Positions 9,274-63,731 of a DNA stretch of 64,000 nucleotides are shown piece by piece. Where the stretch lies: the IMG/VR virus record IMGVR_UViG_3300029489_000102, one strand, 5' to 3'. A program made the position numbers and the translations under genes. The notes beneath the pieces are model-generated. The model worked only from the letters and a program-made list of their open reading frames with translations. It ran no database searches and was not told the origin of the DNA. Positions within the stretch are counted from its first letter, which is position 1; each line of letters starts with the position of its first letter. Origin of the DNA: a virus.

Positions 9274-10341
9274 ATGAGCAAGATTATCACCTGTGAGCAG
9301 GTCAGCAATGGTCATCCGGACAAAATCTGTGATCAGATCGCAGACGCCATTGTGACCGACATCCTCCAGCACGACAAGAACGCCCGTGTGGCAATCGAGT
9401 GTCTGCTGAAACGCAGCCAGCTCTTTATTGCCGGCGAGGTCACCACCGATTACCAGCCCAACTACCAGCAGATCGTCCATGAGGTCATCACCCGCATTGG
9501 TGCTGACAAGATGGGCTTTGATTTCCGGGAGCTGCTCCGCATCGGCATCCTGGTCGATAAGCAGTCGCCGGATATTGCACTGGGCGTGGATAAGGGCGGT
9601 GCTGGTGATCAGGGCATCATGTACGGCTACGCCACCAACGAGACCGCCGAACAGATGCCAATCCCCTACATGGTCGCCACCAAGTTCCTGCAACTGCTGA
9701 AGAACCATCCGAGCAAGATGTTCCGGGCAGATGCCAAGGCGCAGGTCAGCTACGACTACGACACCGGCCGAATCACTACGTTCCTCTGCTCTGTGCAGCA
9801 CAGCCCGGACGTGGAGGTCAGCGATTTCCGCCACATCATCGAATCCATGATGGTGCTGGCTGCCTGTGAGTACGGTCTGGACGGGAACTTCCAGAAACTG
9901 GTGAACCCCACCGGCCGGTTCGTGCTGGGCGGCAGCTATGCCGACTGTGGTGTCACCGGCCGTAAGCTGGCGTGCGATACCTACGGGGGCATCGGTCGAA
10001 TGGGCGGCGGTGCCCTCAGCGGCAAAGACCCCACCAAGGTAGACCGCTCCGCTGCATACATGGCGCGGAAGATCGCCAAGGATATCGTGCAGGCCGGCTA
10101 CGCTGACAAGTGCGAAGTCCAGCTGGCGTATGCCATCGGGGTGGTACAGCCGGTGGGTGTGGCGGTGGAGTGCTTCGGCACGGAACACCAGCCGCTGGAC
10201 TTCATCCAGGCTTACGTCAAGGACAGCTACGACCTGACCCCGCAGGGTATCATCCAGCGTCTGGGTCTGCTGGACGTGGACTACAACAAGGTCAGTGCCT
10301 ACGGTCACTTCGGAAAGCCCGGCCTGCCGTGGGAGGAATGA
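9274..10341 (+). CDS. metK: S-adenosylmethionine synthetase (methionine adenosyltransferase), phage-encoded
   Basis: GHPDKICDQIADA, GGAGDQGIMYGYA, NPTGRFVLGG, DTYGG, SGKDPTKVDRSAAYMAR: a near-complete set of MetK signature motifs. 355 aa is slightly shorter than bacterial MetK. Confidence 0.9.
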   Translation: MSKIITCEQVSNGHPDKICDQIADAIVTDILQHDKNARVAIECLLKRSQLFIAGEVTTDYQPNYQQIVHEVITRIGADKMGFDFRELLRIGILVDKQSPDIALGVDKGGAGDQGIMYGYATNETAEQMPIPYMVATKFLQLLKNHPSKMFRADAKAQVSYDYDTGRITTFLCSVQHSPDVEVSDFRHIIESMMVLAACEYGLDGNFQKLVNPTGRFVLGGSYADCGVTGRKLACDTYGGIGRMGGGALSGKDPTKVDRSAAYMARKIAKDIVQAGYADKCEVQLAYAIGVVQPVGVAVECFGTEHQPLDFIQAYVKDSYDLTPQGIIQRLGLLDVDYNKVSAYGHFGKPGLPWEE

Positions 10342-10344
10342 CCC

Positions 10345-10704
10345 GTGCCCCGCAGACCCAAGGTGCCGTGCCGACACCCCGGTTGCCCGGAGCTGGTTGA
10401 GCCGGGCAGCCTTTACTGTGCAATGCACCTGCCGCTGCACCCGGAAGTCACACGCCCAGCGGGTAAGCGTGGCTATACACGGCAGTGGCAAAAAATAAGC
10501 AGGCAGTACCTCCAAGCCCATCCGCTCTGCGCCGAGTGCATGAGGCAGGGGAGATACACGAAAGCCACCGTGGTAGACCATATCACACCGCACCGTGGTG
10601 ATCCCGGACTTTTCTGGGACGAAGCCAACTGGCAGCCGATGTGTAAACAGTGCCACGACCGCAAGACTTTGACCAAAGACATCCACCCGGTGTACCGCTA
10701 CTGA
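10345..10704 (+). CDS. HNH endonuclease
   Basis: GTG start after GGGAGGAA. Motif VDHITPHRGD...NWQPMCKQCHDRKT (HNH with Zn-binding Cys pairs). Confidence 0.85.
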   Translation: MPRRPKVPCRHPGCPELVEPGSLYCAMHLPLHPEVTRPAGKRGYTRQWQKISRQYLQAHPLCAECMRQGRYTKATVVDHITPHRGDPGLFWDEANWQPMCKQCHDRKTLTKDIHPVYRY

Positions 10705-11104
10705 CCCCCACCGGGGGCCGGGGTCACTTCTCTGTGGTGAAGTCAACAGAAGACCGGTGGCCCCTTTCGTGTGAAAAAACGCAAAATTCATAGGCCGGGG
10801 GTCCCGGCAATATCGGCGCAAAATGAACAAGGTGAAGATGAGGGCATCGGGGTGAACGCTCCGGTGCCTTTTGTTTTCCCCCGAAACAAACCAAAGCGTG
10901 TGAAAACCCTTGCAACATGGGACTTTTCGCACGTTTTAGCTTGTTCCGGGACAAGGAGAAGCAAGCAGCAGCCGGACGCCGCAAAAACAAACTAACCCGG
11001 CGGGGCAGTGCCGGCTGCCGCTTCGCTTCTTTTCGTATGCTTTTTGAGATTTTCCACTGGAACTGACATAGAAACGGCGAAAAATGAGGACGGGGTGAGG
11101 ATGG

Positions 11105-11407
11105 ATGGAAGATTACACAGCCGAGATGATCAAGGACATGGCGTTTTCCTTCTGTCCGCAGTGTGGCGCAGCCATCGTTCCGAACCATCGGGGACGACCG
11201 AGAAAATTCTGTTCCCCGGAATGTCGATCCAAGTGGAACAACACCCACCCAAGACCGCAGAACTGGAAGACCGTGCGGTCAAAGGTCTGCCCGGTGTGCG
11301 GCAGGGAGTTCTCCTACCGCCACCAGTATGGACTTCCAAGAAAATATTGCAGTCGAGCCTGTGCCAATAAGGGCAGGGCGAAGGGAGAGAGCAGCATTGG
11401 AAAATAA
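11105..11407 (+). CDS. zinc-ribbon protein (two CxxC...CxxC motifs), hypothetical
   Basis: CPQCG...CSPEC and CPVCG...CSRAC motifs. Confidence 0.45.
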   Translation: MEDYTAEMIKDMAFSFCPQCGAAIVPNHRGRPRKFCSPECRSKWNNTHPRPQNWKTVRSKVCPVCGREFSYRHQYGLPRKYCSRACANKGRAKGESSIGK

Positions 11408-11630
11408 AGTGATCGGTGTATTTGCAGTCTGCAACACCGCAGGCATCTGTGTACATGAGATTGACCATGCAGAGAACAGAGTCCTTGCTTCCATGAACGG
11501 GACAGACCCGGAATGGTATCCGATTACGGAAAAACCGCAGTCGGAGATGGGCGGGGACAGCGATGAACTGGAGTCGGGCTTTAAGTTCGGCTCCTTTTTT
11601 GTACCGTTCTCTGAGGTCATGCGTGTGTGA
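11397..11630 (+). CDS. small hypothetical protein (TTG start?)
   Basis: C-terminal half of ORF 11163-11630 looks protein-like; the N-terminal half is an alternate-frame artefact. AGGGAGAG RBS before the TTG. Confidence 0.3.
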   Translation: MENKVIGVFAVCNTAGICVHEIDHAENRVLASMNGTDPEWYPITEKPQSEMGGDSDELESGFKFGSFFVPFSEVMRV

Positions 11631-11651
11631 ATCTGAACTGGGAGGAGCTAC

Positions 11652-12920
11652 ATGAAAGCAACTGCTGAACTGAAAATGCTGCCGGTGACCGTACTCAAGC
11701 CGGCTGCATACAATCCCCGAAAAAAGCTGAAGCCGGGGGACAAGGAGTACGAGAAGATTAAGAACTCCATTGAGGAGTTTGGTTTTGCCGATCCGCTGGT
11801 GGTCAATGCCGATATGACGATCATCGGCGGCCATCAACGCCTGACCGTTGCGATGGCACTGGGTTATACCGAAGTGCCTTGTGCGGTGGTGGACATCGAC
11901 AAGACCCGAGAAAAAGCTCTGAACATTGCGCTCAACAAGATCACCGGCTCGTGGGATGATTCCCTGCTGGCTGACCTGCTGAAGGATATCGAGAACTCCA
12001 ACTTCGACCTGGGCAAGACGGGCTTTGAGCCGCCTGAGATCGAGACGCTGTTCAACAAGGTCCACGACAAGGACATCAAGGAAGATGACTTCGATGTGGA
12101 ATCTGAGATGAAGCAGCCGACCTTCTCGCAGGCAGGTGACCTTTGGATGCTGGGCCGGCACCGTGTTCTGTGCGGTGATTCTACGAAGGCGGAGTGCTAC
12201 GATACCCTGATGGACGGCGTGAAGGCCAACCTTGTGCTTTCCGATCCCCCGTACAATGTAGATGTGGAAGAAACGGCCGGTAAGATCATGAACGACAACA
12301 TGGGCGACTCGGAATTCTACGAGTTCCTGCTGGCGGCGTTTAAACAGATGCACGGTCATCTGGCGGATGACGGTTCCATCTACATCTTCCACGCCGATAC
12401 GGAAGGTCTGAATTTCCGAAAGGCGTTCAAGGATGCGGGATTCTATCTGTCCGGGTGCTGTATCTGGAAAAAGAATGCTCTGGTGCTGGGTCGCAGTCCC
12501 TATCAGTGGCAGCATGAACCCTGCCTCTATGGGTGGAAACTGAAGGGCAAGCACCAGTGGTACTCCGACCGTAAGCAGACCACCATCTGGGAGTACGACC
12601 GTCCCAAAGCAAACAAAGACCACCCGACCATGAAGCCCATCGGCCTGATGAGCTATCCCATCCGCAACTCTACCATGACCAACGGCATCGTCCTGGACCC
12701 CTTCCTCGGCAGCGGCTCGACCCTGATCGCCTGTGAGGAGACTGACCGGGCGTGCCGGGGCATTGAGCTTGACCCCAAATTCGTGGATGTTATCGTCAAG
12801 CGCTATATCGAGCACAGCGAAGGTCGCTACGAGGATGTGTATGTCCTCCGTGGCGGTCAAAAGTTGAAGTTCGATGAGGTGGCATCTTTCCAGCCGGAAC
12901 AGGAGGGCGCAGATGACTGA
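11652..12920 (+). CDS. ParB-like nuclease domain fused to N6-adenine/N4-cytosine DNA methyltransferase (beta class, PF01555-like)
   Basis: N-terminal ParB/Srx motif (GGHQRL), motif IV SDPPYN, C-terminal FLGSGST AdoMet-binding motif. Confidence 0.85.
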   Translation: MKATAELKMLPVTVLKPAAYNPRKKLKPGDKEYEKIKNSIEEFGFADPLVVNADMTIIGGHQRLTVAMALGYTEVPCAVVDIDKTREKALNIALNKITGSWDDSLLADLLKDIENSNFDLGKTGFEPPEIETLFNKVHDKDIKEDDFDVESEMKQPTFSQAGDLWMLGRHRVLCGDSTKAECYDTLMDGVKANLVLSDPPYNVDVEETAGKIMNDNMGDSEFYEFLLAAFKQMHGHLADDGSIYIFHADTEGLNFRKAFKDAGFYLSGCCIWKKNALVLGRSPYQWQHEPCLYGWKLKGKHQWYSDRKQTTIWEYDRPKANKDHPTMKPIGLMSYPIRNSTMTNGIVLDPFLGSGSTLIACEETDRACRGIELDPKFVDVIVKRYIEHSEGRYEDVYVLRGGQKLKFDEVASFQPEQEGADD

Positions 12921-13683
12921 ACCCAGATGTGTCCTGTTCCATGACAACTTCCAGAACTTCAAGTCCTACAACATTCCCAAGGCACAGCTGGTGATCGCCG
13001 ACATCCCGTATAACATCGGGTCGGACTTCTACGCCAGCCGCCCGGATTGGTATGTGGACGGAGATAACCGGAACGGAGAGAGCGATAAGGCCCGGAAAGC
13101 GGCATTCAATACCGACTTCACTTTCAATATCGCAGAATACTTCCATTTCTGTAACCGGCTGCTGAAGAAAGAACCCATGAAAGGGGAAAAAGGCGCACCG
13201 TGTATGATCGTGTTCTGTGCGTTCCAGCAGATCCCCAAGGTCATCACGGAAGCTGAGAAGTACGGGTTCAAAAATTATATCCCGCTGACCTTCTGTAAGA
13301 ACTACAGCCCGCAGGTCTTGAAAGCCAACATGAAGATCGTGGGTGCAACGGAGTATGCGCTGGTCCTCTACCGGGGCAAGCTCCCGAAGTTCAACAACGT
13401 CGGTAAGGACGGCAAGTCCCACATGATCTTCAATTGGTTTGACTGGAAACGAGATGGCAAGGACTATCCAAAGATCCATCCGTCCCAGAAACCGGTGTCC
13501 GTGCTGAAACGCCTGATCGAGATCTTTACCGATCCCGGAGATGTGGTCATCGACCCTTGCGCCGGCAGCGGAGCAACGCTCCGGGCAGCCAGAGAACTGG
13601 GACGTGACAGCTACGGATTTGAAGTGTCCAGGGATTTCTACCTGAAAGCCAAAGAGCAGATGGTCGGAGAGGAGGCTGTATGA
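12913..13683 (+). CDS. DNA methyltransferase (N6A/N4C type, DIPYN motif)
   Basis: ATG overlaps the previous stop. ADIPYN motif IV and C-terminal DPCAGSGAT motif I (beta-class order). Confidence 0.85.
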   Translation: MTEPRCVLFHDNFQNFKSYNIPKAQLVIADIPYNIGSDFYASRPDWYVDGDNRNGESDKARKAAFNTDFTFNIAEYFHFCNRLLKKEPMKGEKGAPCMIVFCAFQQIPKVITEAEKYGFKNYIPLTFCKNYSPQVLKANMKIVGATEYALVLYRGKLPKFNNVGKDGKSHMIFNWFDWKRDGKDYPKIHPSQKPVSVLKRLIEIFTDPGDVVIDPCAGSGATLRAARELGRDSYGFEVSRDFYLKAKEQMVGEEAV

Positions 13684-16151
13684 GCACCGAATCGAATATC
13701 CAACTGACCCTCGGCAGCCTCTTTGATGGCTCCGGGGGTTTTCCTTTGGGCGGTTTACTGACAGGCTGCATCACGCCGCTGTGGAGCAGCGAAGTGGAGC
13801 CCTTCGCCATCCGGGTCACGACCAAGCGTCTGCCCGAGGTGAAGCACTACGGGGATGTGTCCGCCATCAACGGCGCAGACTTGCCGCCGGTGGACATCAT
13901 CACCTTTGGCAGTCCTTGCCAGGACATGTCCATTGCCGGTAAACGAGACGGTCTGGATGGTTCACGGTCCAGCCTGTTCTATGAAGCGATTCGCATCGTG
14001 AAGGAAATGAGGTGTAAGACCAATGGAGCAAAACCAAGATTTATCGTATGGGAGAATGTGCCGGGGGCCTTCTCCTCAAACAAAGGGCAGGACTTCAAAG
14101 CAGTCCTCGAAGCCGTCATCGGTGTTAAGGAACCGTCCGCCGAGGTGCCTGCGCCTGACAAAAAAGGCTGGCCCGATGCTGATTACTATCTGGGAGACGG
14201 ATGGAGCGTCGCGTATCGAGTTCTTGACGCTCAATGGTGGGGCGTACCCCAAAGGAGAAAACGCATCTACCTTGTCGCAGATTTTGCAGACCACGGTGCC
14301 CCAAAAGTATTATTTGAGTCCGAAGGCGTGTCTGGGTATTCTGCGGAGGGCTTCCGTGCGTGGCAAAGAACTGCCTCCGGTGCTGAAAGCGGCGCTGGAA
14401 CGGCAGGCTGCTGCGGAAGACTCTGCCTGAACGACCAGGGCGGGGAGAGGATGGATGTGACCGAGGAGGTGACCGGAACACTCCGGGCACAAGAGCATGG
14501 GCATCAGCCGTGCGTCCTTGAAGCGGCCGGTTTCTGCACAGAACATTCCGCCAACGCGAGGAGCATCGGATATGAGGCAGAACGTTCTCCCACCCTCCGG
14601 GCCGGAGTCGTGCCTGCTGCCATCGCTCTGGAAAATCACCCGACTGATTGCCGGGTGAAGATCGCAAAGGACGGCAAGGTACAGACGCTGACCAGTCGGT
14701 GCGGTACGGGCGGTGGCAATGTCCCGTTGGTCATGGATGGCGTGGAAAACAGCGGGGAAGAGGTGGAAAACTCACCTGCAGTCACACTGAAAATTCGTTC
14801 TGGATGCGAGGGTGGCGGCAAAGGTGCTATCTGGCAGGAAGAAAAATCTGCTACCCTCGGCTGCAACAACGACCAGACCGTGTTCATCCCTTTTATGAAA
14901 GGAACGAGACCGCACTCACAGAGTGAAGCACCGACATGGAAACAGGGTGAAGTCGCAAATACACTCAATACGTTTGATGTCGGAGAACAGCGATGCAATG
15001 AACTGGCGATTAAAGCCTACGGTATCTGCTCCAAGGCCAGCCATTCCATGATGTCGGATAACCCCCATAGCGGTTTCTATGAAGCCAGTACCTCTCGGAC
15101 GTTGGATCGCAGCGGCGGTGACCCGACCTGTAACCAGGGTGGGCTGTGTATCTGTGAACCTGTTGTCTGCGTGGATCAGGGTGGAGGCAAGTCGAACTGT
15201 ACGGTGGACGAACAGGTGGCACCGCCTCTGGCCTGCACCCATGGCGGGGCTCCGGCAGTAGCCTTTACCCAGAACCAGCGGGATGAAGTCCGGGATCTGG
15301 GCGAGACGGCGGGTTCGCTGTCTGCACAGCCGGGAATGAAACAGCAGACCTTTGTGGCGCAGCCGGATGACGTGACGGCATTCCATGTGAATCAGCGCAA
15401 TGAGCTGATCGACCTGCATGGAAAGTCCGGTGCGCTCATGGCGACCCGAAGCGACCAGATGCAGACCTTCGTGCTGCAGGGCAACATAATCGGCCGCAAA
15501 GACGAGAATGGTCCGCAAGGTGACGGCATCAACGAAGATGTCTGCTTTACGCTGGATGCCACTGACCGTCACGCAGTCTGCGCACCGGAAGATGTCTACG
15601 CCATGACCACCGGCTCCTTCATGAGGGTGGAGGAGAATGTATCTCCCACCCTTATGGCCCGGGACTTTAAAGACCCTGCCACCATTGCACCGGTGCCACA
15701 CCTGAACGATGGCGTGTCGGGAACGGTGGCGACCGGGGCGCATCCCAGCGGATTCAATGGTCAGGACGCTTTCAATGACCGACTGGTCATCGATAACCCG
15801 GAGGCACAGCCGATCCCCGTGTCCTATACGGTTCGCCGTCTGACCCCGACCGAGTGCGCTCGGCTGCAAGGCTTTCCCGATTGGTGGTGCCGTGACCTCG
15901 AAACTGAGAATCCCACGGAAGAAGAAATCTCTTTCTGGCAGGATGTGTTTGAAACGCACCGCAGACTTGTGACTCAGGCCAAGAAGCCGAAGACGGAAAA
16001 GCAGATCCGAAAATGGCTGGCAGACCCGTATTCGGATGCCGCAGAGTATAAGCTCTGGGGCAATGGTGTCGCACTGCCGTGTGTCTTTTTTGTACTGTCC
16101 GGCATCGTCTGGGTAGCCGGATCGCCTGAGAATGGGAGTGAATCGGAGTGA
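13680..16151 (+). CDS. DNA (cytosine-5)-methyltransferase, large (823 aa, extended target-recognition region; possibly multispecific)
   Basis: Motif I FDGSGG, motif IV GSPCQDMSIAG, motif VI ENVPG, C-terminal RRLTPTECARLQGFPDWW. Long variable region between motifs VIII and IX. Confidence 0.9.
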   Translation: MSTESNIQLTLGSLFDGSGGFPLGGLLTGCITPLWSSEVEPFAIRVTTKRLPEVKHYGDVSAINGADLPPVDIITFGSPCQDMSIAGKRDGLDGSRSSLFYEAIRIVKEMRCKTNGAKPRFIVWENVPGAFSSNKGQDFKAVLEAVIGVKEPSAEVPAPDKKGWPDADYYLGDGWSVAYRVLDAQWWGVPQRRKRIYLVADFADHGAPKVLFESEGVSGYSAEGFRAWQRTASGAESGAGTAGCCGRLCLNDQGGERMDVTEEVTGTLRAQEHGHQPCVLEAAGFCTEHSANARSIGYEAERSPTLRAGVVPAAIALENHPTDCRVKIAKDGKVQTLTSRCGTGGGNVPLVMDGVENSGEEVENSPAVTLKIRSGCEGGGKGAIWQEEKSATLGCNNDQTVFIPFMKGTRPHSQSEAPTWKQGEVANTLNTFDVGEQRCNELAIKAYGICSKASHSMMSDNPHSGFYEASTSRTLDRSGGDPTCNQGGLCICEPVVCVDQGGGKSNCTVDEQVAPPLACTHGGAPAVAFTQNQRDEVRDLGETAGSLSAQPGMKQQTFVAQPDDVTAFHVNQRNELIDLHGKSGALMATRSDQMQTFVLQGNIIGRKDENGPQGDGINEDVCFTLDATDRHAVCAPEDVYAMTTGSFMRVEENVSPTLMARDFKDPATIAPVPHLNDGVSGTVATGAHPSGFNGQDAFNDRLVIDNPEAQPIPVSYTVRRLTPTECARLQGFPDWWCRDLETENPTEEEISFWQDVFETHRRLVTQAKKPKTEKQIRKWLADPYSDAAEYKLWGNGVALPCVFFVLSGIVWVAGSPENGSESE

Positions 16152-54951: not shown

Positions 54952-55737
54952 ATGGCATACACTAACAGTCCCTTAGTGGTTTATACGAACCTCAGCCCGA
55001 ACCATTCTGGGCAGCGGACACACAGCATCGACCGCATCACCCCGCACTGTGTGGTGGGGCAGTTGTCTGCGGAAAGTATCTGTGGCTGCTTCATCAGCCC
55101 GAGTCGTCAGGCAAGTTGTAACTACGGCATCGGCAAGGACGGCCGTGTGTCGCTCTGTGTCGAAGAAAAGAACCGGAGCTGGTGCTCTTCCAGTGCAGCA
55201 AACGATCAGCGGGCTATCACTATCGAGTGCGCCAGTGACCTGACCCACCCATACGCCATGAACAGTGCCGTCTACACTTCGCTTATCAAGCTCTGTACCG
55301 ACATCTGCAAGCGGAACGGTAAGACCAAGCTGCTCTGGCTGGGGGACAAGAACAAGACGCTGAACTATGCGCCGGCATCGGATGAGATGGTTCTGACCGT
55401 CCACCGCTGGTATGCGAACAAAGCCTGCCCCGGCGACTGGCTGTACAGCCGCCTCAGTGATCTGGCGGCCAAGGTAACGGCGGCACTGGGCACTCCTGTT
55501 GAATCCACTGGCTTACAGGCAGCTTCTTTGAAGGATATGGAGTCCGCAGAGGTTGTGACAAAGGTGGCCACGCTGTTTACCGCAAACCAGAAGCAGTCCG
55601 GCATCCTTGCCAGCGTGTCCATGGCGCAGTTCATTCTGGAATCCGGCTACGGCAAGTCCGAGCTGGCACAGAATGCCAATAACTGCTTTGGCATGAAGGC
55701 ATCACTTTCCGGGAACACCTGGTCGGGTTTTGCCTAG
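54952..55737 (+). CDS. endolysin part 1: N-acetylmuramoyl-L-alanine amidase (Amidase_2/PGRP) plus start of glucosaminidase domain, ending at in-frame TAG
   Basis: Amidase_2 motifs (ITPHCVV, AITIECA, HRWYANKACPGDW). Glucosaminidase start SMAQFILESGYGKSELAQNANNCFGMKA. Stop TAG 55735-55737. Confidence 0.8.
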   Translation: MAYTNSPLVVYTNLSPNHSGQRTHSIDRITPHCVVGQLSAESICGCFISPSRQASCNYGIGKDGRVSLCVEEKNRSWCSSSAANDQRAITIECASDLTHPYAMNSAVYTSLIKLCTDICKRNGKTKLLWLGDKNKTLNYAPASDEMVLTVHRWYANKACPGDWLYSRLSDLAAKVTAALGTPVESTGLQAASLKDMESAEVVTKVATLFTANQKQSGILASVSMAQFILESGYGKSELAQNANNCFGMKASLSGNTWSGFA

Positions 55738-55749
55738 GATGGGCATTCC

Positions 55750-56424
55750 GTGTATTCGATGAAAACCGGGGAGCAGAACACGGACGGCAGCTATGTAAGC
55801 ATTACGGCAGACTTCCGAAAGTACAGTTCCATTGAGGACTCTATCAACGACCATTCCGCTTACCTGCTGGGAGCTATGAACGGCAGCCAAAAGCGGTACG
55901 AAGGACTGGCAGGCTGCACTGACTACAAGAAAGCCGTGCAGATCATCAAGGACGGCGGTTACGCGACGAGCCTTGACTATGTACAGAACCTTTGCCGGAT
56001 CATTGAGCAGTGGAACCTGACCCAGTACGATGCGGCGGTAGCCACTACGCCCACTACGGCCTTGTACCGTGTGCGCAAGAATTGGCCGGATGCCGCATCC
56101 CAGAAGGGTGCGTTCCGTGACCTCGGTAACGCAAAAGCGTGTGCGGACAAGAACCCTGGCTATTCTGTGTTCGATGAGAACGGCAAGGTCGTCTATCCCA
56201 CCAGCACGGTGTTTCAGCCCTACACGGTCCGGGTGTCCATCTCTGACCTGCACATCCGCAAGGGCCCCGGCACGAACTACGGTTCCCGTGGTTTTACTGG
56301 CAAGGGTGTGTTCACCATTGTTTCGGAGGCAACAGGCAAGGGCGCATCCAAGTGGGGCTTGCTGAAATCCTATGCCAGCAAGCGTAACGGCTGGATCAGC
56401 CTCGATTACGTCAAGAAGGTCTAA
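55750..56424 (+). CDS. endolysin part 2: remainder of glucosaminidase domain + two cell-wall-binding repeats + SH3b-like domain (same frame as part 1)
   Basis: DGHSVYSMKTGEQNTDGSYVSITADFRKYSSIEDSINDHSAYLL continues the glucosaminidase fold. 55750 and 54952 share the reading frame; only the TAG separates them. Confidence 0.7.
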   Translation: MYSMKTGEQNTDGSYVSITADFRKYSSIEDSINDHSAYLLGAMNGSQKRYEGLAGCTDYKKAVQIIKDGGYATSLDYVQNLCRIIEQWNLTQYDAAVATTPTTALYRVRKNWPDAASQKGAFRDLGNAKACADKNPGYSVFDENGKVVYPTSTVFQPYTVRVSISDLHIRKGPGTNYGSRGFTGKGVFTIVSEATGKGASKWGLLKSYASKRNGWISLDYVKKV

Positions 56425-56530: not shown

Positions 56531-56665
56531 TGTCATATATGCTGCAATTCAGGCGTTCTGTCAGGCAGATAGTTTGTCGGTAATATGCCGATTTATCTGG
56601 GCGACAGAACTTGCTATTCAGCCATACATGCGGCATTATACGACTACCCCAAGGAGGATGACGCA

Positions 56666-57607
56666 ATGGAAATTGTAGTGAAACAGAAAAGGGCGGCGGC
56701 CTATTGCAGAGTCAGCACCGGCATGGAGTGTCAGGAAGGTTCCTATGAGATTCAGAAAAGCTACTTCACAGAGCTGCTCTCCAATAACCCCGATGAGGAA
56801 CTCGTAAAGGTCTATGCGGATGAAGGCAGCGGACGCAGTACGCAGGGTCGGCCGGAATTCCGACAGATGATTCAAGATTGCATGGATGGCAAAATCGACA
56901 TCATCTATACCAAGTCCATCTCCCGTTTCTCCCGAAATATGCTTGACTGTGTGACCGTGGTGCGTCAGCTGAAAGAGCTGGGCATCCCGGTCATTTTTGA
57001 AAAAGAGGGCATTAACACGATGGATGGCCAGAGCGAGCTGTTCTTCCACATCCTTGCCATCATTGCCGAGGAGGAGTCCAAGAGCATCGGTGAGAATGTT
57101 CGAGCAGGCATCGCCTATCTCCATGACCAGGGCATTCCGACCGGCCGTGTGACCTACGGCTTTCGCAGGGTCAACAAGCAGGGTGAATGGAGAATTGAAG
57201 AATCCGATGCCCGCCGTGTCCGCTATGCCTTTGACCAAGCGGCAAAAGGAGTCTGCTACGCAGATATCCGAGCTTGCTTGGATAAGATGGAGGATGAGGA
57301 AAATACCGGTGTGTCATGGTCTCAGAATCGAAATCGGCTACCCAATATGCTGAAAAATGTCGCATACATGGGGGATTACTGGACGGATTGCTACTACACG
57401 GCCTACGGCAAGAACGGCCACCGATACAGCAAGCGGAACAGGGGAGAACGCGCCCAAGTTCATCTGGAGGACCATCATGAAGGCATTGTCAGCAGAGAGC
57501 AGTTCGAGCGTGTGCAGACCATGATTCAGATGGGCTTGCTCCACTCCGGACGAAAAAAATACAATGATGAACAGCAGAAGGTCCTGAACGACCCCAAATG
57601 GCAATAA
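56666..57607 (+). CDS. serine recombinase (short, 313 aa; resolvase catalytic domain + recombinase domain, lacks long C-terminal zinc-ribbon/coiled-coil)
   Basis: AAYCRVSTGMECQEGSYEIQ (catalytic Ser), SISRFSRN, recombinase-domain motifs. ATG after AAGGAGGA. Confidence 0.8.
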   Translation: MEIVVKQKRAAAYCRVSTGMECQEGSYEIQKSYFTELLSNNPDEELVKVYADEGSGRSTQGRPEFRQMIQDCMDGKIDIIYTKSISRFSRNMLDCVTVVRQLKELGIPVIFEKEGINTMDGQSELFFHILAIIAEEESKSIGENVRAGIAYLHDQGIPTGRVTYGFRRVNKQGEWRIEESDARRVRYAFDQAAKGVCYADIRACLDKMEDEENTGVSWSQNRNRLPNMLKNVAYMGDYWTDCYYTAYGKNGHRYSKRNRGERAQVHLEDHHEGIVSREQFERVQTMIQMGLLHSGRKKYNDEQQKVLNDPKWQ

Positions 57608-57619
57608 GGAGAAAAGTAC

Positions 57620-59131
57620 ATGGAAATTACAGTAGAAAAGGTAGACACTGGGGTACAGAAGCTCGGCTTTCAGGCACTTAGCACCTTGAAAACAGTCCGC
57701 GTTGCAGTCTATGCCCGTGTCAGCACGGACCAGGAGATTCAGCTCCACAGCTTGGAGGAGCAGATGAAAGCCTTCCGCGCTAAGATTGCCCAGCACCCTG
57801 GCTGGATGTTGGTGGATGTCTACGCCGATGAGGGCATCAGCGGAACCAGCGTGAAAAAGCGTAAAGAGTTCTTGCGGATGATGGAGGATTGCGAGGCAGG
57901 CAAGGTCGATTATATCATGGCAAAAAGTATCTCTCGATTTGCCCGCAACACGGTCGAATGTCTGTCCTATGTGCGCCATCTTCAGAGCATCGGTGTCCAG
58001 CTTTACTTTGAAAAGGAAGGACTGGATACGGCAACGTCGGTGTCCGAACTGATTCTGACGGTCATGGCGGCTTTTGCACAGGAGGAAAGCCGTTCCATCT
58101 CCGAAAACCTGAAATGGGGCATTCGCAAGCGGTTTGAAAGTGGTGAGTCGCGCTGGACCAAGACCTATGGCTATCGGAAGACCAAGGACGGTGAAATTGT
58201 CATTGAACCGGACGAAGCTGCCATTGTGCGGATGATTTTCAAAATGTACCAGTACGGCATCCCCATGACGGACATTCTGGATGAGCTGACCTTTATACAG
58301 GCTCCTTCCGCAAGGGGCAAGCAGACGTGGAACAAGACCGCCCTTAAGTATCTCCTTGAGAACGAGAAGTACATTGGTGATATGCGGCTTCAGAAATGGG
58401 TCAGTGTTGACCATATTTCCCATAGGAGTGTCCGGAACGACTCGACTGTGATTCCGGTCTACAACGTCAGGAACCACCATGTTCCTATTATCGACCGCCA
58501 TACCTACCAGCAGGTACAGCGCATTATGGAACTGAAATCTCCGCATGGGGAGTACAGCCGGTATCCCTACTTCGATACAAACATTGTCTGCCCGCTGTGT
58601 GGGAAGAAGATGATTCCGAGGGTCATGAAAGTGAACAGCCACAAGCGCATCCTTGGCTGCTTTGATGTGGACGGCTGCCGTGGGTATGCGGTCAAAGGGT
58701 ATCTTGTGGATGCTGCCCTGCTGGAAGCCTACAACACCCTTGAAATCAAGGAAAAGAAGCGGACGGTAGCTATGCAGAGGATGCTGGAAATCAAGGCAGA
58801 GAGCCCGAAACTGGACACCGTCCAGTATTACTGGCTGGATGACTTGGTGGGGCACATTGAATTTAAACAGGACACCATGCGGGTGTTCTGGAAATGTGGT
58901 CTGGAGAGCGAGGTTGCTTTGAATGCATCCAAGGTTGAGGAACCGACCCATGTGGCGGAGCTTTATCGGAACTCGCTGGACCGTGCGCAGCGGAGCGAGA
59001 ACAAGCCGGTGAGCGTGGTGCGGGCTGATAAGAAGTCAGTGAATACGCGGGAGGCACAGCGTAATGCTGCCATGCAGACGGCAAAGAACCTCCGTGCCAA
59101 GGAGAATGGAGTAGCAGCAAATGATTATTAA
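57620..59131 (+). CDS. large serine recombinase (integrase-type, 503 aa)
   Basis: VAVYARVSTDQE (catalytic Ser), SISRFARN, recombinase domain, Zn-ribbon CPLCGKK...C, C-terminal coiled-coil. Confidence 0.9.
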   Translation: MEITVEKVDTGVQKLGFQALSTLKTVRVAVYARVSTDQEIQLHSLEEQMKAFRAKIAQHPGWMLVDVYADEGISGTSVKKRKEFLRMMEDCEAGKVDYIMAKSISRFARNTVECLSYVRHLQSIGVQLYFEKEGLDTATSVSELILTVMAAFAQEESRSISENLKWGIRKRFESGESRWTKTYGYRKTKDGEIVIEPDEAAIVRMIFKMYQYGIPMTDILDELTFIQAPSARGKQTWNKTALKYLLENEKYIGDMRLQKWVSVDHISHRSVRNDSTVIPVYNVRNHHVPIIDRHTYQQVQRIMELKSPHGEYSRYPYFDTNIVCPLCGKKMIPRVMKVNSHKRILGCFDVDGCRGYAVKGYLVDAALLEAYNTLEIKEKKRTVAMQRMLEIKAESPKLDTVQYYWLDDLVGHIEFKQDTMRVFWKCGLESEVALNASKVEEPTHVAELYRNSLDRAQRSENKPVSVVRADKKSVNTREAQRNAAMQTAKNLRAKENGVAANDY

Positions 59132-60335
59132 AAAGGTAATGCCAAAAATCCCAGTGGCAAAGAAACGTGTGGCCGCGTATTGCCGTGTCAGCACTTTTCG
59201 CAACGAGCAGGATGAAAGCTTTGAAACTCAGCAGAAGTATTACGAGGAGCTGATCCAAAGTCATCCCGACTGGGAACTGGTTAAGGTATATGCTGACCGG
59301 CATTCTGCTACACGAGTGAAAAATCGACCGGGCTTTCAGGAAATGGCGGCGGCCGCCGAAGCCAAGAAGCTGGATATTATCATTTGCAAGAGTATTTCCC
59401 GGTTTTCTCGGAACATGGTGGATTGCCAGCAGTATGCCAAATGGTTTAGAACGCTGGGGGTTACAATCATTTTTGAGGAACAAAATATCCGCACAGATGA
59501 TCCAACCTGTGATTTCGTCCTATCCATCTTGGCAGCAGTGGCACAGGATGAAAGTCATTCTATCAGTGAAAATGAAAAGGCTGCTTATGCAAGCCGATTT
59601 GCACGAGGTGAGTACAATCTCGGCAATAATCGTATTCTCGGCTACGACTGTGTGGATGGCGAGCTGGTTCCCAACAAGGACGCTTGGATTGTAAAGGAAG
59701 TATTCCGCAGATTCATCGAAGGCGAGAGCTATAGGCAAATCGCTAAAGGTTTGGAAGAGCTGGGGGCTCAATCGTTGCACAGTAAAAAGGGGTTTGGAGT
59801 AGAAACTCTCCGGTACATGGTTTCAAATGAAACCTATGTGGGTGACAAGCGGTTGCAGAAGAAAGCTCCGTTGGACTACCTGACCAAGAAGCCCAATCCG
59901 AATCAGAAGGTGGAATCCAATTATCTGTGGGATGACCATGAAGCAATCATAGATCGGGAGACATGGGATAAGGCACAGGAAATTCTGGAAAAACGAAAAG
60001 AACTGGCAAAGGTCGGTATTCATAAAACGAACAGGGAGCATCACTTCCTCTACGGCAAAGTATTCTGTGGAGAATGTGGTGCTCCCTTTTTGCGCCGGAC
60101 TTTGAAAGCTGCTGGCGGTTTCAAGACGCAAAGCACCTATAAAGCGTGGAACTGCCGAAACCGGCAAAAAGGAAAAGGCAATGAGCGATGCGGCAACCGC
60201 TTTATTAAGGAAGAAGAACTTATCGATGCAATCCTGCGAGAACTTGAGTGGCTGAACATGGATCAGGAACGGTTTGAAAAGGAAGTATCGAAGGTACTGG
60301 TATATCCAGACCATATTGAAGTTGAGAAAAACTGA
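59121..60335 (+). CDS. large serine recombinase (404 aa)
   Basis: VAAYCRVSTFRNEQ, SISRFSRN, recombinase domain, CGECG...C Zn ribbon. Confidence 0.9.
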   Translation: MIIKKVMPKIPVAKKRVAAYCRVSTFRNEQDESFETQQKYYEELIQSHPDWELVKVYADRHSATRVKNRPGFQEMAAAAEAKKLDIIICKSISRFSRNMVDCQQYAKWFRTLGVTIIFEEQNIRTDDPTCDFVLSILAAVAQDESHSISENEKAAYASRFARGEYNLGNNRILGYDCVDGELVPNKDAWIVKEVFRRFIEGESYRQIAKGLEELGAQSLHSKKGFGVETLRYMVSNETYVGDKRLQKKAPLDYLTKKPNPNQKVESNYLWDDHEAIIDRETWDKAQEILEKRKELAKVGIHKTNREHHFLYGKVFCGECGAPFLRRTLKAAGGFKTQSTYKAWNCRNRQKGKGNERCGNRFIKEEELIDAILRELEWLNMDQERFEKEVSKVLVYPDHIEVEKN

Positions 60336-60340
60336 TACAG

Positions 60341-60398
60341 CCCACCGGGTCACTTTCTGGCTTTGCGAATAAGCAAAAGAAGATGGTGACCCGGTGGG
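60341..60398. repeat. perfect 13-bp inverted repeat CCCACCGGGTCAC / GTGACCCGGTGGG with 32-bp spacer containing nested CTTTGC/GCAAAG repeat, followed by T-run
   Basis: Read directly from the sequence, 6 bp after the last recombinase stop. Terminator or recombination-site candidate. Confidence 0.5.
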
Positions 60399-60481
60399 CC
60401 TTTTTGTTTTGGATGGGATTGCTATGTATAGAGTTTTTCTTTTTGCTGGGTGCCAGAGACACACGATTGGGAGGAACTTGT

Positions 60482-60850
60482 ATGAAGCATGAACTTGAAC
60501 AGGTACATATTGAATCCTATGGATTGACTGGGCCAGAAGTGGTAGTTGCCGCAGCAATCAAAGTTTACTTGATGAATTTGCCATGGTCCGACGCGAAAAA
60601 GAAAATGGATGCAGTGATAAGCTTGGAGAGAGGGGCAGTGACGGTCGATGGGAGAACCCTGTCTGGTTTGGTGAACGATTCGGTAGAATACGCTCTGGGA
60701 GCAGTAGGCCAGAAAACTGAGCTTGCGCCAGAATTATGGCAGACAATGGAGGCCCAGCTTAAGTCGGTGAACGGATCGGTTACAGTTCAAACAGTAGCCA
60801 CAGGGCTGTTAGATTTCCTGTACGATTGCTGGACTTCAACTAAAAGGTAG
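60482..60850 (+). CDS. hypothetical protein
   Basis: ATG after GGGAGG. Upstream part of ORF 60383 looks non-coding. GC drops here. Confidence 0.4.
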   Translation: MKHELEQVHIESYGLTGPEVVVAAAIKVYLMNLPWSDAKKKMDAVISLERGAVTVDGRTLSGLVNDSVEYALGAVGQKTELAPELWQTMEAQLKSVNGSVTVQTVATGLLDFLYDCWTSTKR

Positions 60851-60936: not shown

Positions 60937-61278
60937 TTATACGCCGAGGCTGTAAAGGATGGCGCGTAATTCTTTCAAGGTACGAGTGAGAATTTCAGCT
61001 TCGAGTTCGTTGCAGTCAATCAGAAGCCGATGAACTTCGGTGTCTGCTGTGGAAACGGAGTGGGTCAGACTATCGACAAGCAAGTCATCTGTAGAAACGC
61101 CGAGAGTGTTTGCAATCTCTACGATTGTTTCAAGACTTGGTCGGCAGGCAGCGGTTTCGAGCTGACTGATGTATTGACGGGAAAGATGAACCTCGTATGC
61201 AAAGTCTTCTTGCGTGAGGTGAGACTGGTTCCGAAAAAACGCTATACGTTTTCCGAGCGCAGGGTAGTCTATAGGCAT
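60937..61278 (-). CDS. XRE-family helix-turn-helix transcriptional regulator (repressor-like)
   Basis: IAFFRNQSHLTQEDFAYEVHLSRQYISQLETAACRPSLETIVEIANTLGVS: canonical Cro/C1-type HTH. Confidence 0.75.
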   Translation of the reverse strand: MPIDYPALGKRIAFFRNQSHLTQEDFAYEVHLSRQYISQLETAACRPSLETIVEIANTLGVSTDDLLVDSLTHSVSTADTEVHRLLIDCNELEAEILTRTLKELRAILYSLGV

Positions 61279-61536: not shown

Positions 61537-62085
61537 TTGGGACGAGTGCAAGAAGGACTTTTGACGCTGTATAGTGAGGTCGAATCATCGCCAGTCCGCT
61601 GGCTCTGGTATCCATATATTGCAATTGGAAAAATAACCTTGCTACAGGGAGACCCCGGTGATGGCAAGTCTACAATGATGATGAATCTGATTGCTGAAAT
61701 AACCACAGGAGGTGCCTTTCCTGACGGAAAACCATTGGAGCAACCACAGAGGGTTATCTACCAATGCTCAGAAGACGGGGTTGCGGATACGATAAAACCC
61801 CGTCTGGAAGAACAGGGCGCAGACTGCAGCAAAGTGGCATTTATCAATGAAGAAGTCAACAGTGGGCTGACACTCGATGATGAACGCATTAGGGATGCAA
61901 TCGTTGCGTTTCGACCGAGGCTTGTTGTGATTGACCCAATTCAAGCATACCTCTCCAGTGACTCCGATTTGCAGATTGCTGGAAAAGCAAGGCGGCTGAT
62001 GCAGCACCTTGGAATGTGGGCGGCTACCTATGATTGCGCCATTGTGCTGATAGGGCACTTGAACAAAAAGGAAGGCATATATCTT
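61537..62085 (+). CDS. AAA_25/RecA-like ATPase (RepA/primase-associated type), apparently 3'-truncated at ~62085
   Basis: WLWYPYIAIGKITLLQGDPGDGKST Walker A, LVVIDPIQ Walker B, GHLNKK. Past ~62085 the frame is antisense to the convergent paralogue. TTG/GTG start. Confidence 0.55.
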
Positions 62086-62744
62086 GCCGCCGGTGCTTCT
62101 TTGTTCGGTGTGCGTGTGATTGCAAGAATACTTCTTGCAGCACCCGCAATATCAATAGAACCGTTGGTACGATAAAGAGGGTTGGTATCTCTCATCTTGT
62201 TCATATGAGCGATAATCACGATGGCACAGCCTGTATTTTTTGCAACTGCAATCAAGTGATTAAACTCTGCCCTTGTTTCGTTGGCATTGTTCATTGAACA
62301 GTTCTCTCCGATATAGAAACTCATCGGGTCAAGAATTAAAAGTTTTGCGTGATACCTTTCGATTGCTTCAGCAATACGGTTATCTCCAAAGGATAAAGAT
62401 TTTTCATCTTCTTTGATGAAGATAAGATTTTCTCCGTTCCCACCGGCAGAGTTAAAACGGGGGACTACCGTATCGTCTGCATCATCTTCCGTTGTCTGAT
62501 AGATGACTGTCATAGGCTCTGTTTCTTCTTCGGTAAAGGGGAGAGGTTCTCCCTTTGAGAGCAGGGCGGCTATGGAAAGCATTAACTTGCTTTTCCCATC
62601 GCCAGGATCGCCCTGCAAGAGCGTAACCTTGCCGAACGGAATATACGGATACCACAGCCATTTCACTTCTTTCGGTTCAATCTCACTTGCCTTGATAACT
62701 TCAAGAGGTACATTTACATTCATTTCATTTTCCATCTGCTTCAT
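62028..62744 (-). CDS. AAA_25/RecA-like ATPase paralogue (minus strand)
   Basis: KWLWYPYIPFGKVTLLQGDPGDGKSK, LLILDPMS, AHMNKMRDTNPLYRTNGSIDIAGAARS. About 40% GC. Confidence 0.65.
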   Translation of the reverse strand: MKQMENEMNVNVPLEVIKASEIEPKEVKWLWYPYIPFGKVTLLQGDPGDGKSKLMLSIAALLSKGEPLPFTEEETEPMTVIYQTTEDDADDTVVPRFNSAGGNGENLIFIKEDEKSLSFGDNRIAEAIERYHAKLLILDPMSFYIGENCSMNNANETRAEFNHLIAVAKNTGCAIVIIAHMNKMRDTNPLYRTNGSIDIAGAARSILAITRTPNKEAPAARYMPSFLFKCPISTMAQS

Positions 62745-63170: not shown

Positions 63171-63731
63171 TTATTGATAGCCAATTTCCTCAATAATATC
63201 TTTAACTAATTTGTTTGAGTCAGCATCGGCTTCTGCATATATTACAGTATTTCCTACCCTCGTGCATACTGTATAATAATTATCGTGCTTTACCCAATAA
63301 ACAGTATAATTCGAGGCAGAGGAAGAATATTCTTGGTTTGTTGTTCTGCTCCCAAATCGGTCGCTATCGTATCTTACATAATGATAATAAGAAACTCGTG
63401 CAGCGTGTGCAGATTTATCATCATCAAAAATGAAGAAATTAAAATTAATACCACTATCTGGATTTATGAAAGTTAATGCTTTTTGGAGATGTTCACCCTT
63501 GCTATCGTTATTCTCTTTCAGTTTTTCCTTAAACATTTCGGTTGTATCGGTGGGAACAATTCCTTGATTTTCAACCGCTGCCCAAACTTGCTCATAAGTC
63601 GCAACGATTTTTGGCTGCCCATTTATAGCAAAATAAATCAAAATAGCACCTAAAAGCAAAACCACTACTACTGGAATTAAAATCAATTTCAGATTTGTTT
63701 TAATCAACTCAAAATTTATCTTCTTTCCCAT
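63171..63731 (-). CDS. membrane-anchored hypothetical protein (N-terminal TM helix)
   Basis: LILIPVVVVLLLGAILIYFAI TM segment. AT-rich codon usage consistent with the low-GC neighbourhood. Confidence 0.5.
   Translation of the reverse strand: MGKKINFELIKTNLKLILIPVVVVLLLGAILIYFAINGQPKIVATYEQVWAAVENQGIVPTDTTEMFKEKLKENNDSKGEHLQKALTFINPDSGINFNFFIFDDDKSAHAARVSYYHYVRYDSDRFGSRTTNQEYSSSASNYTVYWVKHDNYYTVCTRVGNTVIYAEADADSNKLVKDIIEEIGYQ

Follow-up and report, generated by a model that had tools for sequence, protein, structure and literature searches.

Does a run of three adjacent serine recombinase genes mark the end of the prophage that carries it, and do the three products work separately or as one enzyme? 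The question is raised by the IMG/VR virus record IMGVR_UViG_3300029489_000102, of which we analyzed a stretch of 64,000 nucleotides (nt), hereafter the window, in which the genes that we call Rec1, Rec2 and Rec3 are followed at once by an inverted repeat. A preliminary description of this DNA had taken the triplet to end the prophage, and the repeat to be either part of an attachment (att) site, attL or attR, or simply a terminator. We compared the window with 20 loci recovered by two exact-protein look-ups, with Rec3 and with the product of a downstream helix-turn-helix (HTH) gene as queries, and with IMG/VR contigs, giving more than 30 contigs together. This comparison revealed a right arm whose architecture is richer than had been described. 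The reading that we favor overall, although we hold it tentatively, is that of a co-transcribed module of three paralogs, closed by a terminator (the hairpin H1), whose products form a heteromeric recombinase plausibly acting at the 3' end of Bac_transf, a sugar transferase gene.

The recombinase triplet and hairpin H1

Judged by their domains, the three products are paralogous large serine recombinases, and their genes are predicted to form one co-transcribed module. All lie on the plus strand: Rec1 (313 amino acids, aa) at 56666-57607, Rec2 (503 aa) at 57620-59131 and Rec3 (404 aa) at 59121-60335. Open reading frames (ORFs) and Pfam agree with the preliminary description on the number, common orientation and lengths of these genes, and each product contains a Resolvase domain (PF00239, E 1e-32 to 1e-36) and a Recombinase domain (PF07508, E 5e-12 to 2e-21). 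The motifs that it had reported were likewise located in all three sequences, RVST at aa 15, 33 and 22, and SISRF(S/A)RN at aa 84, 103 and 91 of Rec1, Rec2 and Rec3, respectively, and the residues R15/S17/S84-R87-R90 were invariant among 16 Rec1 homologs. The three proteins differ toward their C-termini. Only Rec3 matches the zinc-ribbon family Zn_ribbon_recom (PF13408, E 5e-12) in Pfam; Rec2 has a Cys4 cluster (C324, C327, C347, C353) with no zinc-ribbon Pfam match, a C-terminal extension of about 150 aa, and a catalytic domain whose nearest solved structure is 3G13. Rec1, by Pfam and by its cysteine pattern, is without a zinc ribbon and would thus lack the zinc-ribbon/coiled-coil region, as had been claimed; it contains no cysteine after aa 250, where Rec2 and Rec3 have four each, and the length of its homologs is constant at about 308-327 aa, down to 45% identity.

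The genes had been said to overlap partially, which is correct for Rec2 and Rec3 (11 nt, the sole overlap in the triplet) and incorrect for Rec1 and Rec2, which are separated by a 12-nt gap with a ribosome-binding site inside it. On more than 20 other contigs, gene prediction placed the starts at the same three sites. It is because of this gap, the overlap and a single terminator that we read the triplet as one operon. An imperfect palindrome of 56 bp, with no strand assigned, lies about 55 nt 5' of the Rec1 start (GTTCTGTCAGGCAGATA ... TATCTGGGCGACAGAAC, 56555-56610); it is kept in the lineage of locus L069 (75% identity), and is possibly an operator or promoter-region element of the triplet operon, or a recombination site.

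Members of the triplet resemble their counterparts at the same position in other lineages more closely than they resemble each other. Among the window and loci L047, L045, L172 and L175, same-position identities were 45-60% for Rec1, 42-58% for Rec2 and 43-56% for Rec3, compared with 31-41% between positions. The order of a short, a long and a zinc-ribbon-bearing recombinase recurs in L047 (a diverged phage with 50-55% identity), L069, L092, L095 (a contig of a Christensenella metagenome-assembled genome), L096 and L172-L177, and the order, the lengths and the positional orthology hold from 39% to 100% identity. Pairwise ratios of nonsynonymous to synonymous change (pN/pS) of 0.2-0.4 for all three genes indicate purifying selection. 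Loci L092, L095 and L096 came from a profile scan of genome contigs, in which tandem recombinase genes were common; the Rec1 alignment used for that scan had shrunk to generic catalytic motifs, and it accordingly yielded only relatives of at most 45% identity. Because positional orthology is maintained across diverged phages, with unimpaired catalytic motifs and under purifying selection, we regard the triplet, as far as sequence can tell, as a real functional unit, and the earlier claim of a genuine multi-recombinase module is borne out.

We think it somewhat probable, from this pattern of conservation, that Rec1, Rec2 and Rec3 work as one machine. In the mechanism that we propose, the three proteins would act jointly as a heteromeric site-specific recombinase, on the model of CcrA/CcrB and of the integrase triplets of streptococcal ICEs (integrative and conjugative elements), in which the zinc-ribbon-bearing Rec2 and Rec3 would supply recognition of the att half-sites, and the short Rec1, consisting of catalytic and recombinase domains, would complete the synaptic tetramer.

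The inverted repeat after Rec3, H1 (60340-60410, plus strand), is a predicted intrinsic (Rho-independent) terminator of the triplet operon, as indicated by its fold, by collinearity and by compensatory change. The 13-bp perfect repeat reported earlier (CCCACCGGGTCAC at 60341-60353 and its complement at 60386-60398, with a spacer of 32 nt) is present together with its nested inner stem, and the full arms extend to 14 bp (GCCCACCGGGTCAC-N32-GTGACCCGGTGGGC, 60340-60399). The left arm starts 5-6 nt past the TGA of Rec3 (60333-60335), and the T-run CTTTTTGTTTT lies directly 3' of the right arm. The RNA fold has an energy of -44.8 kcal/mol, compared with -21.0 +/- 2.9 kcal/mol for shuffled sequences (z = -8.2; 0 of 200 shuffles as good). 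A simple terminator scan passed over H1, the loop limit of the scan being 3-8 nt. In L069 and L070, which represent a lineage 71-77% identical to the window, the arms CCCACCGGG/CCCGGTGGG of the window correspond to CCCACTGGG/CCCAGTGGG, a compensatory change from C-G to T-A that keeps the pairing and that would also be expected of a symmetric protein-binding site. Sequence continuity is unbroken across 60340-60399 in all of the related contigs. We read H1 as a terminator because it stands directly after the last gene of the operon, ends in a U-run, is continued through by all relatives and has kept its pairing, and the second of the two possibilities raised in the preliminary description is thus the better one. 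Canonical short-loop terminators follow the Rec3 counterpart (Rec3') in L045 and L174, two relatives that have the triplet only, and the terminator of L174 has H1-like arms (GCCCACCCGGTATC/GATACCGGGTGGG).

The right end of the prophage and the recombinase that acts there

The claim that the triplet ends the prophage did not survive comparison with the relatives, which are collinear through the repeat and remain mutually conserved for about 5.6 kb past the Rec3 stop (to about 16870 in locus coordinates), up to Bac_transf, with flanks that differ beyond. Six genes occupy this interval. ORF122 (60482-60850, plus strand in the window) is without a family match and is kept after the triplet in close relatives. 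HTH113 (60937-61278, minus strand), a Cro/C1-type regulator according to Pfam and PHROGs, opens a module that continues with an AAA_25 ATPase (289-320 aa in relatives), a fourth serine recombinase of 653 aa that we call LSR653 (13398-15359 in L002), p220 and p144, and is followed by a second hairpin, H2, and by direct repeats. The LSR653 module is universal across related lineages, at 58-100% identity. The p220 gene (L002 15313-15975) lies immediately downstream of LSR653 and overlaps its 3' end, and its product is 30% identical over 192 aa to LSR653 residues 370-541 (E 4e-24). H2 follows p144 (L002 16538-16600), with outer arms and a T-run paralogous to those of H1, and the two hairpins, with their near-identical arms, bracket the module from ORF122 to p144. 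H2 is succeeded by a pair of 57-nt direct repeats and by the 19-nt motif TGTTTATGCCTGANNGCAC in three copies (L002 16620-16875); the third copy is inside the Bac_transf fragment and the other two are within the phage end, mimicking the host half-site. As a free-standing copy of the LSR653 C-terminal domain, p220 could bind these host-site mimics and serve as a directionality or accessory factor.

Variation on this layout was also observed. H1/H2-type arms are present after p144 in the L077-L079 lineage, with the T-run on the other strand. Some relatives (L005/L006 at 13396-14148, L073, L075 and L089) have further recombinase genes, or entire modules of HTH, AAA_25 and recombinase, between or beside AAA_25 and LSR653, and serine-recombinase elements appear to be nested in this region.

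The junction with host DNA reads ...GCGTTGA|ATCCTGTTTATGCC and is preceded by a promoter-like TTGACA...TAAATA; the right arm ends in ...GCGACCAGCGTTGAAT, and the candidate attB in Bac_transf reads GTGAAGATCCTGTTTATGCCTGAAAGYACCGAGGG... Beyond the junction, all relatives encode the C-terminal 24 residues (aa 430-453) of the Bac_transf sugar transferase, ILFMPESTEG...stop. The intact target was found in 120 metagenome loci and in L051, a locus without the phage, and in L001, L008 and L040 the Bac_transf fragment continues into the intergenic region and glycosyltransferase genes seen in L051. Among the 26 distinct right junctions that we collected, most have complete natural Bac_transf C-terminal tails of many alleles, with the same diversity as the 120 intact copies from gut metagenomes. 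Six or seven junctions diverge after ...C(C/T)GA, 38 bp into the Bac_transf fragment (L002 16874-16875; L007, L010, L059, L069, L081). This GA cluster is suggestive of another recombination hot spot in the Bac_transf gene end, and its junctions may derive from a different element, or from a further event, at that gene. A crossover at +58/59 (GA), which predicts an attL keeping ILFMPESTEG, was considered and not adopted, none of the 120 loci having such an attL. A structured RNA at the right end was also rejected, as the Rfam search was empty and the apparent covariation was synonymous or allelic variation in the last 24 Bac_transf codons. In L047 (about 7900-7960), a short ORF just upstream of Rec1 ends in KFLPESTSEAKKTARGT-stop, which resembles the Bac_transf C-terminus (ILFMPESTEG).

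At the other end of the prophage, the left edge of the window is already within the phage, and relatives have, still further out, a DNA polymerase, a repressor and an M78 peptidase. Tracing the left arm took us past cI, M78, a UmuC-like polymerase, YolD and more genes to several different flanks. Searches of viral contigs with DNA patterns of the left half of attB returned intact target genes only, and so did the 120 metagenome loci, where one apparent truncation, in L195, proved to be a point nonsense mutation. Only the right junction, then, is well defined, as opposed to the left end and the exact crossover.

The most plausible target of the triplet would be this site at the Bac_transf 3' end. 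In L045 and L174, which have the triplet without the LSR653 module, only 10-35 nt separate the Rec3' terminator from the Bac_transf junction, and it is this proximity that makes the site plausible for the triplet. That the triplet made the junction, rather than LSR653, is a proposal that we advance with hesitation. Several observations weigh against it, and against the favored reading as a whole. In this phage clade it is LSR653 that adjoins the junction, with only p220, p144, a hairpin and repeats between. In the variable slot between the endolysin and HTH genes, which holds the triplet or other recombinases in other lineages, L078 has a defense-like ATPase pair, with no recombinase other than LSR653 within the 16-kb locus examined. 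Comparison of L077 and L079 with L078 reveals a clean 5,041-bp insertion in this endolysin-side slot (L077 1081-6121 versus L078 6122), a cassette between the endolysin gene and the next gene that contains a 341-aa ORF besides genes for two serine recombinases, of 796 and 462 aa. Its empty site is TGACTGCCCAAA-AG-CATTGAAAAAG, the AG being common to both junctions, and so clean an insertion of two recombinases into the triplet slot implies that recombinases found there can be passengers. L045 and L174 are without the phage body and could have inherited the junction as remnants of a deletion, and the gin element gets by with one of its three serine recombinases (PMC5595907). Finally, no attL was found, and none of the 120 metagenome loci with the left half of attB proved to be one, so that a simple conservative insertion is unconfirmed.

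Triplets are also found standing alone between host genes. They lie between RodA and yacL-like and radA genes in L172 (10001-13607) and L173, with the same upstream RodA context in L049; between UDP-glucose dehydrogenase and LysR genes in L175 (10001-13606), L176 and L177; and beside MatE in L045 (8001-11150) and L174 (10001-13166). No cargo of a phage or of an ICE was seen beside them in the retrieved flanks, up to 10 kb on each side. In the RodA case, the triplet region (91% identity) and its flanks (93%) have diverged about equally. A stand-alone triplet of this sort may be a remnant, a set of domesticated genes or a selfish unit made of recombinases only.

Of the alternatives, a real if doubtful possibility is that LSR653 is the integrase for the Bac_transf site, with p220, p144 and the 19-nt motifs as accessory or directionality components, and that the triplet is a separate passenger or an alternative integration cassette. 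The position of LSR653 beside the junction is consistent with this, as is the presence of its module in every lineage, where the upstream recombinases are variable or absent. The same may be said of the paralogy of p220 to LSR653 residues 370-541, the double repetition of the 19-nt motif of the host half-site within the right end of the module, and the H1-like hairpins on both of its sides. The two-recombinase cassette precisely inserted in the triplet slot, with its common AG core, and the intact, cargo-free triplets maintained between host genes under purifying selection also fit a triplet of independent habits. However, the triplet-only L045 and L174 abut the same Bac_transf junction, no empty site for a triplet cassette was found, triplet and LSR653 module co-occur over a long divergence (L047, L095), and triplets alone are taken to integrate ICEs (PMC4701971).

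A further pair of readings, which we hold unlikely, is that the triplet is an autonomous recombinase-only unit, or that the right arm nests two serine-recombinase systems, the LSR653 module being bounded by H1 and H2. A triplet that is autonomous, and maintains or moves itself, would explain why intact triplets occur both alone between housekeeping genes and in phages.

It is improbable that one recombinase of the three suffices, the other two being redundant duplicates or serving unrelated recombination, as girA/girB do relative to girC. All three proteins have full catalytic motifs and each could act alone, and gin requires one of its three recombinases plus a small directionality factor (PMC5595907). 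The gin genes, though, are not a conserved contiguous triplet, whereas here order, lengths and positional orthology persist at identities between 39% and 100%, a single operon couples the genes tightly, purifying selection acts on all three, and Rec1, without a zinc-ribbon, is unlikely to recognize att sites alone. The notion that the triplet is the prophage end and the inverted repeat part of attL or attR is scarcely credible: a 60-bp imperfect palindrome beside an integrase gene does resemble a serine-integrase att site, and the real junction of the triplet-only relatives lies 10-35 nt past the equivalent hairpin, but a T-run follows H1, a paralogous T-run hairpin follows p144, relatives are continuous across the repeat and their junction maps elsewhere, with collinearity extending for 1.7 kb more in the window and for 5.6 kb in relatives.

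The truncated right arm in the window

The copy of the prophage in the window has been cut within the AAA_25 gene. The window is collinear with L001-L010 exactly to 62079, so that the phage AAA_25 (61546-62079, plus strand) is truncated, by comparison with relatives, to its 5' part (aa 1-178 of 320). From 62080 to 62744, on the minus strand, follows the 5' part (aa 1-223 of 339) of a second AAA_25 gene, inverted and truncated, which belongs to a Tn4451-like element and converges on the phage fragment. The 186-aa gene of that element, which in relatives lies between TnpV and AAA_25, is at 63171-63731 on the minus strand. The Tn4451-like relatives (L011-L018) contain a TnpX-like recombinase with DUF4368, TnpV, the 186-aa gene, AAA_25 and a Mob_Pre relaxase. 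The two AAA_25 fragments are joined tail to tail at non-homologous positions and have only CATA in common at the breakpoint (62076-62079, no strand), where 62079 is the last base common to the phage relatives and 62076 the first common to the Tn4451-like relatives. The simplest explanation of this pattern would be a deletion with 4-bp microhomology reaching into a neighboring, inverted Tn4451-like element. An inversion or an assembly error may instead have made the junction, and the hybrid 238-aa ORF that spans 62079/62080 is not on record elsewhere; an overlap of 4 bp, however, is atypical of repeat-induced misassembly.

As a consequence of the cut inside AAA_25, this copy appears to have lost LSR653 and the right junction, and LSR653, p220, p144 and the Bac_transf fragment are nowhere in the 64,000-nt window. 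The correction moves the prophage boundary; should the right end be required for excision, a copy without it can probably no longer leave its site. A possible att site near 62085, which the preliminary description had mentioned, coincides with a real discontinuity, at 62079/62080, but this is a probable rearrangement breakpoint inside a gene and not a normal element end. The fall in GC content that had been placed beyond the repeat does occur to the right, though only past 62 kb: GC is about 0.48 over Rec3, 0.47 to 62 kb, and then 0.43 and 0.35. The fall belongs to the foreign Tn4451-like element.

Elsewhere in the window, the endolysin is split into genes for 261 aa (54952-55737) and 224 aa (55750-56424). 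It is also split in L002, in L035 (the contig of L002) and in L044, while a single gene of 490-493 aa (Amidase_2 + Glucosaminidase) is usual among relatives, and the split may be a further sign of a defective prophage lineage. A further set of genes (5689-6399 and 9274-16151) encodes a protein with a PemK/MazF-like toxin domain, an S-adenosylmethionine synthetase, a ParB-N6 methylase fusion, a second N4/N6 methylase and an 823-aa C5 cytosine methylase, and looks like a large anti-restriction or epigenetic gene set. Identical proteins are named from Gemmiger formicilis and Faecalibacterium prausnitzii, and the probable hosts belong to one or other of these genera; a strain with an intact right arm is, for example, that of record OX636702.1. 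The prophage is very common in human gut metagenomes, and more than 5,000 blocks of the assembly collection list the exact Rec3 protein.

Recombinase triplets and related systems

Multi-subunit serine integrases are poorly understood, and no triplet has been biochemically dissected in the literature that we searched. The locus described here offers a candidate target (the 3' end of a sugar transferase gene that initiates capsule or exopolysaccharide synthesis), variants with the triplet only and with LSR653 only, and 26 junctions. If it is true that the subunits divide att recognition among themselves, this would be useful for engineering integrase specificity.

The arrangement of recombinases in triplets is already known from streptococcal mobile elements. 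Streptococcus ICEs may have three adjacent large serine recombinase genes on the same strand (Ambroset et al. 2016, PMC4701971), whose external, middle and internal members group with their positional counterparts, which implies that the triplet is ancestral, and some of which are without a zinc-ribbon Pfam domain (PMC4701971). They are described as site-specific integrases and taken to integrate into mutT, traG or hsdM; integration disrupts or abuts a specific gene, and other coding sequences may separate the triplet from its target (PMC4701971). Set side by side through this published description, the ICE triplets and ours have the same gene arrangement and positional clustering. The carrier here, however, is a siphovirus-like prophage of Oscillospiraceae, of about 75 kb or more, and not an ICE; a fourth recombinase module intervenes; and the target is the Bac_transf 3' end. 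The location of the ICE triplets at the extremity beside the target gene is matched here only in the triplet-only L045 and L174. Integration of the ICE type is further marked by short direct repeats, of 2-8 bp, at the two junctions.

The gin element of Bacillus cereus also has three serine recombinase genes, yet these form no conserved contiguous triplet: girC is far from girAB, and only GirC and the 42-aa GirX are required (PMC5595907). The foreign DNA at the right of the window is likened to mobilizable transposons of the Tn4451/Tn4453 type by the Pfam content of its relatives only; the window holds a truncated, inverted part of such an element, with no resistance gene seen.

Among phages, phi1207.3 has two overlapping serine recombinase genes after its lysis genes (PMC4260502), and the streptococcal prophages of the phi1207.3, phi10394.4 and Javan types likewise have tandem overlapping recombinases after holin and endolysin, at the right end (PMC4260502). 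They differ from the present prophage in having two genes rather than three, in being without the AAA_25 / LSR653 module, and in their target, comEC. To call multi-recombinase systems uncommon in phages, as the preliminary description did, was thus an overstatement, given phi1207.3 (PMC4260502) and the many phage records found by tblastn with Rec1. That search gave 327 matching places in 148 phage records, with a best identity in streptococcal phages of about 40%. CcrA and CcrB of the staphylococcal cassette chromosome SCCmec, paralogs among the large serine recombinases with adjacent genes, carry out excision and integration jointly. Likened by function alone, this pair, rather than triplet, with its staphylococcal cassette and its target orfX, provides a functional model for the heteromeric action that we propose for Rec1, Rec2 and Rec3.

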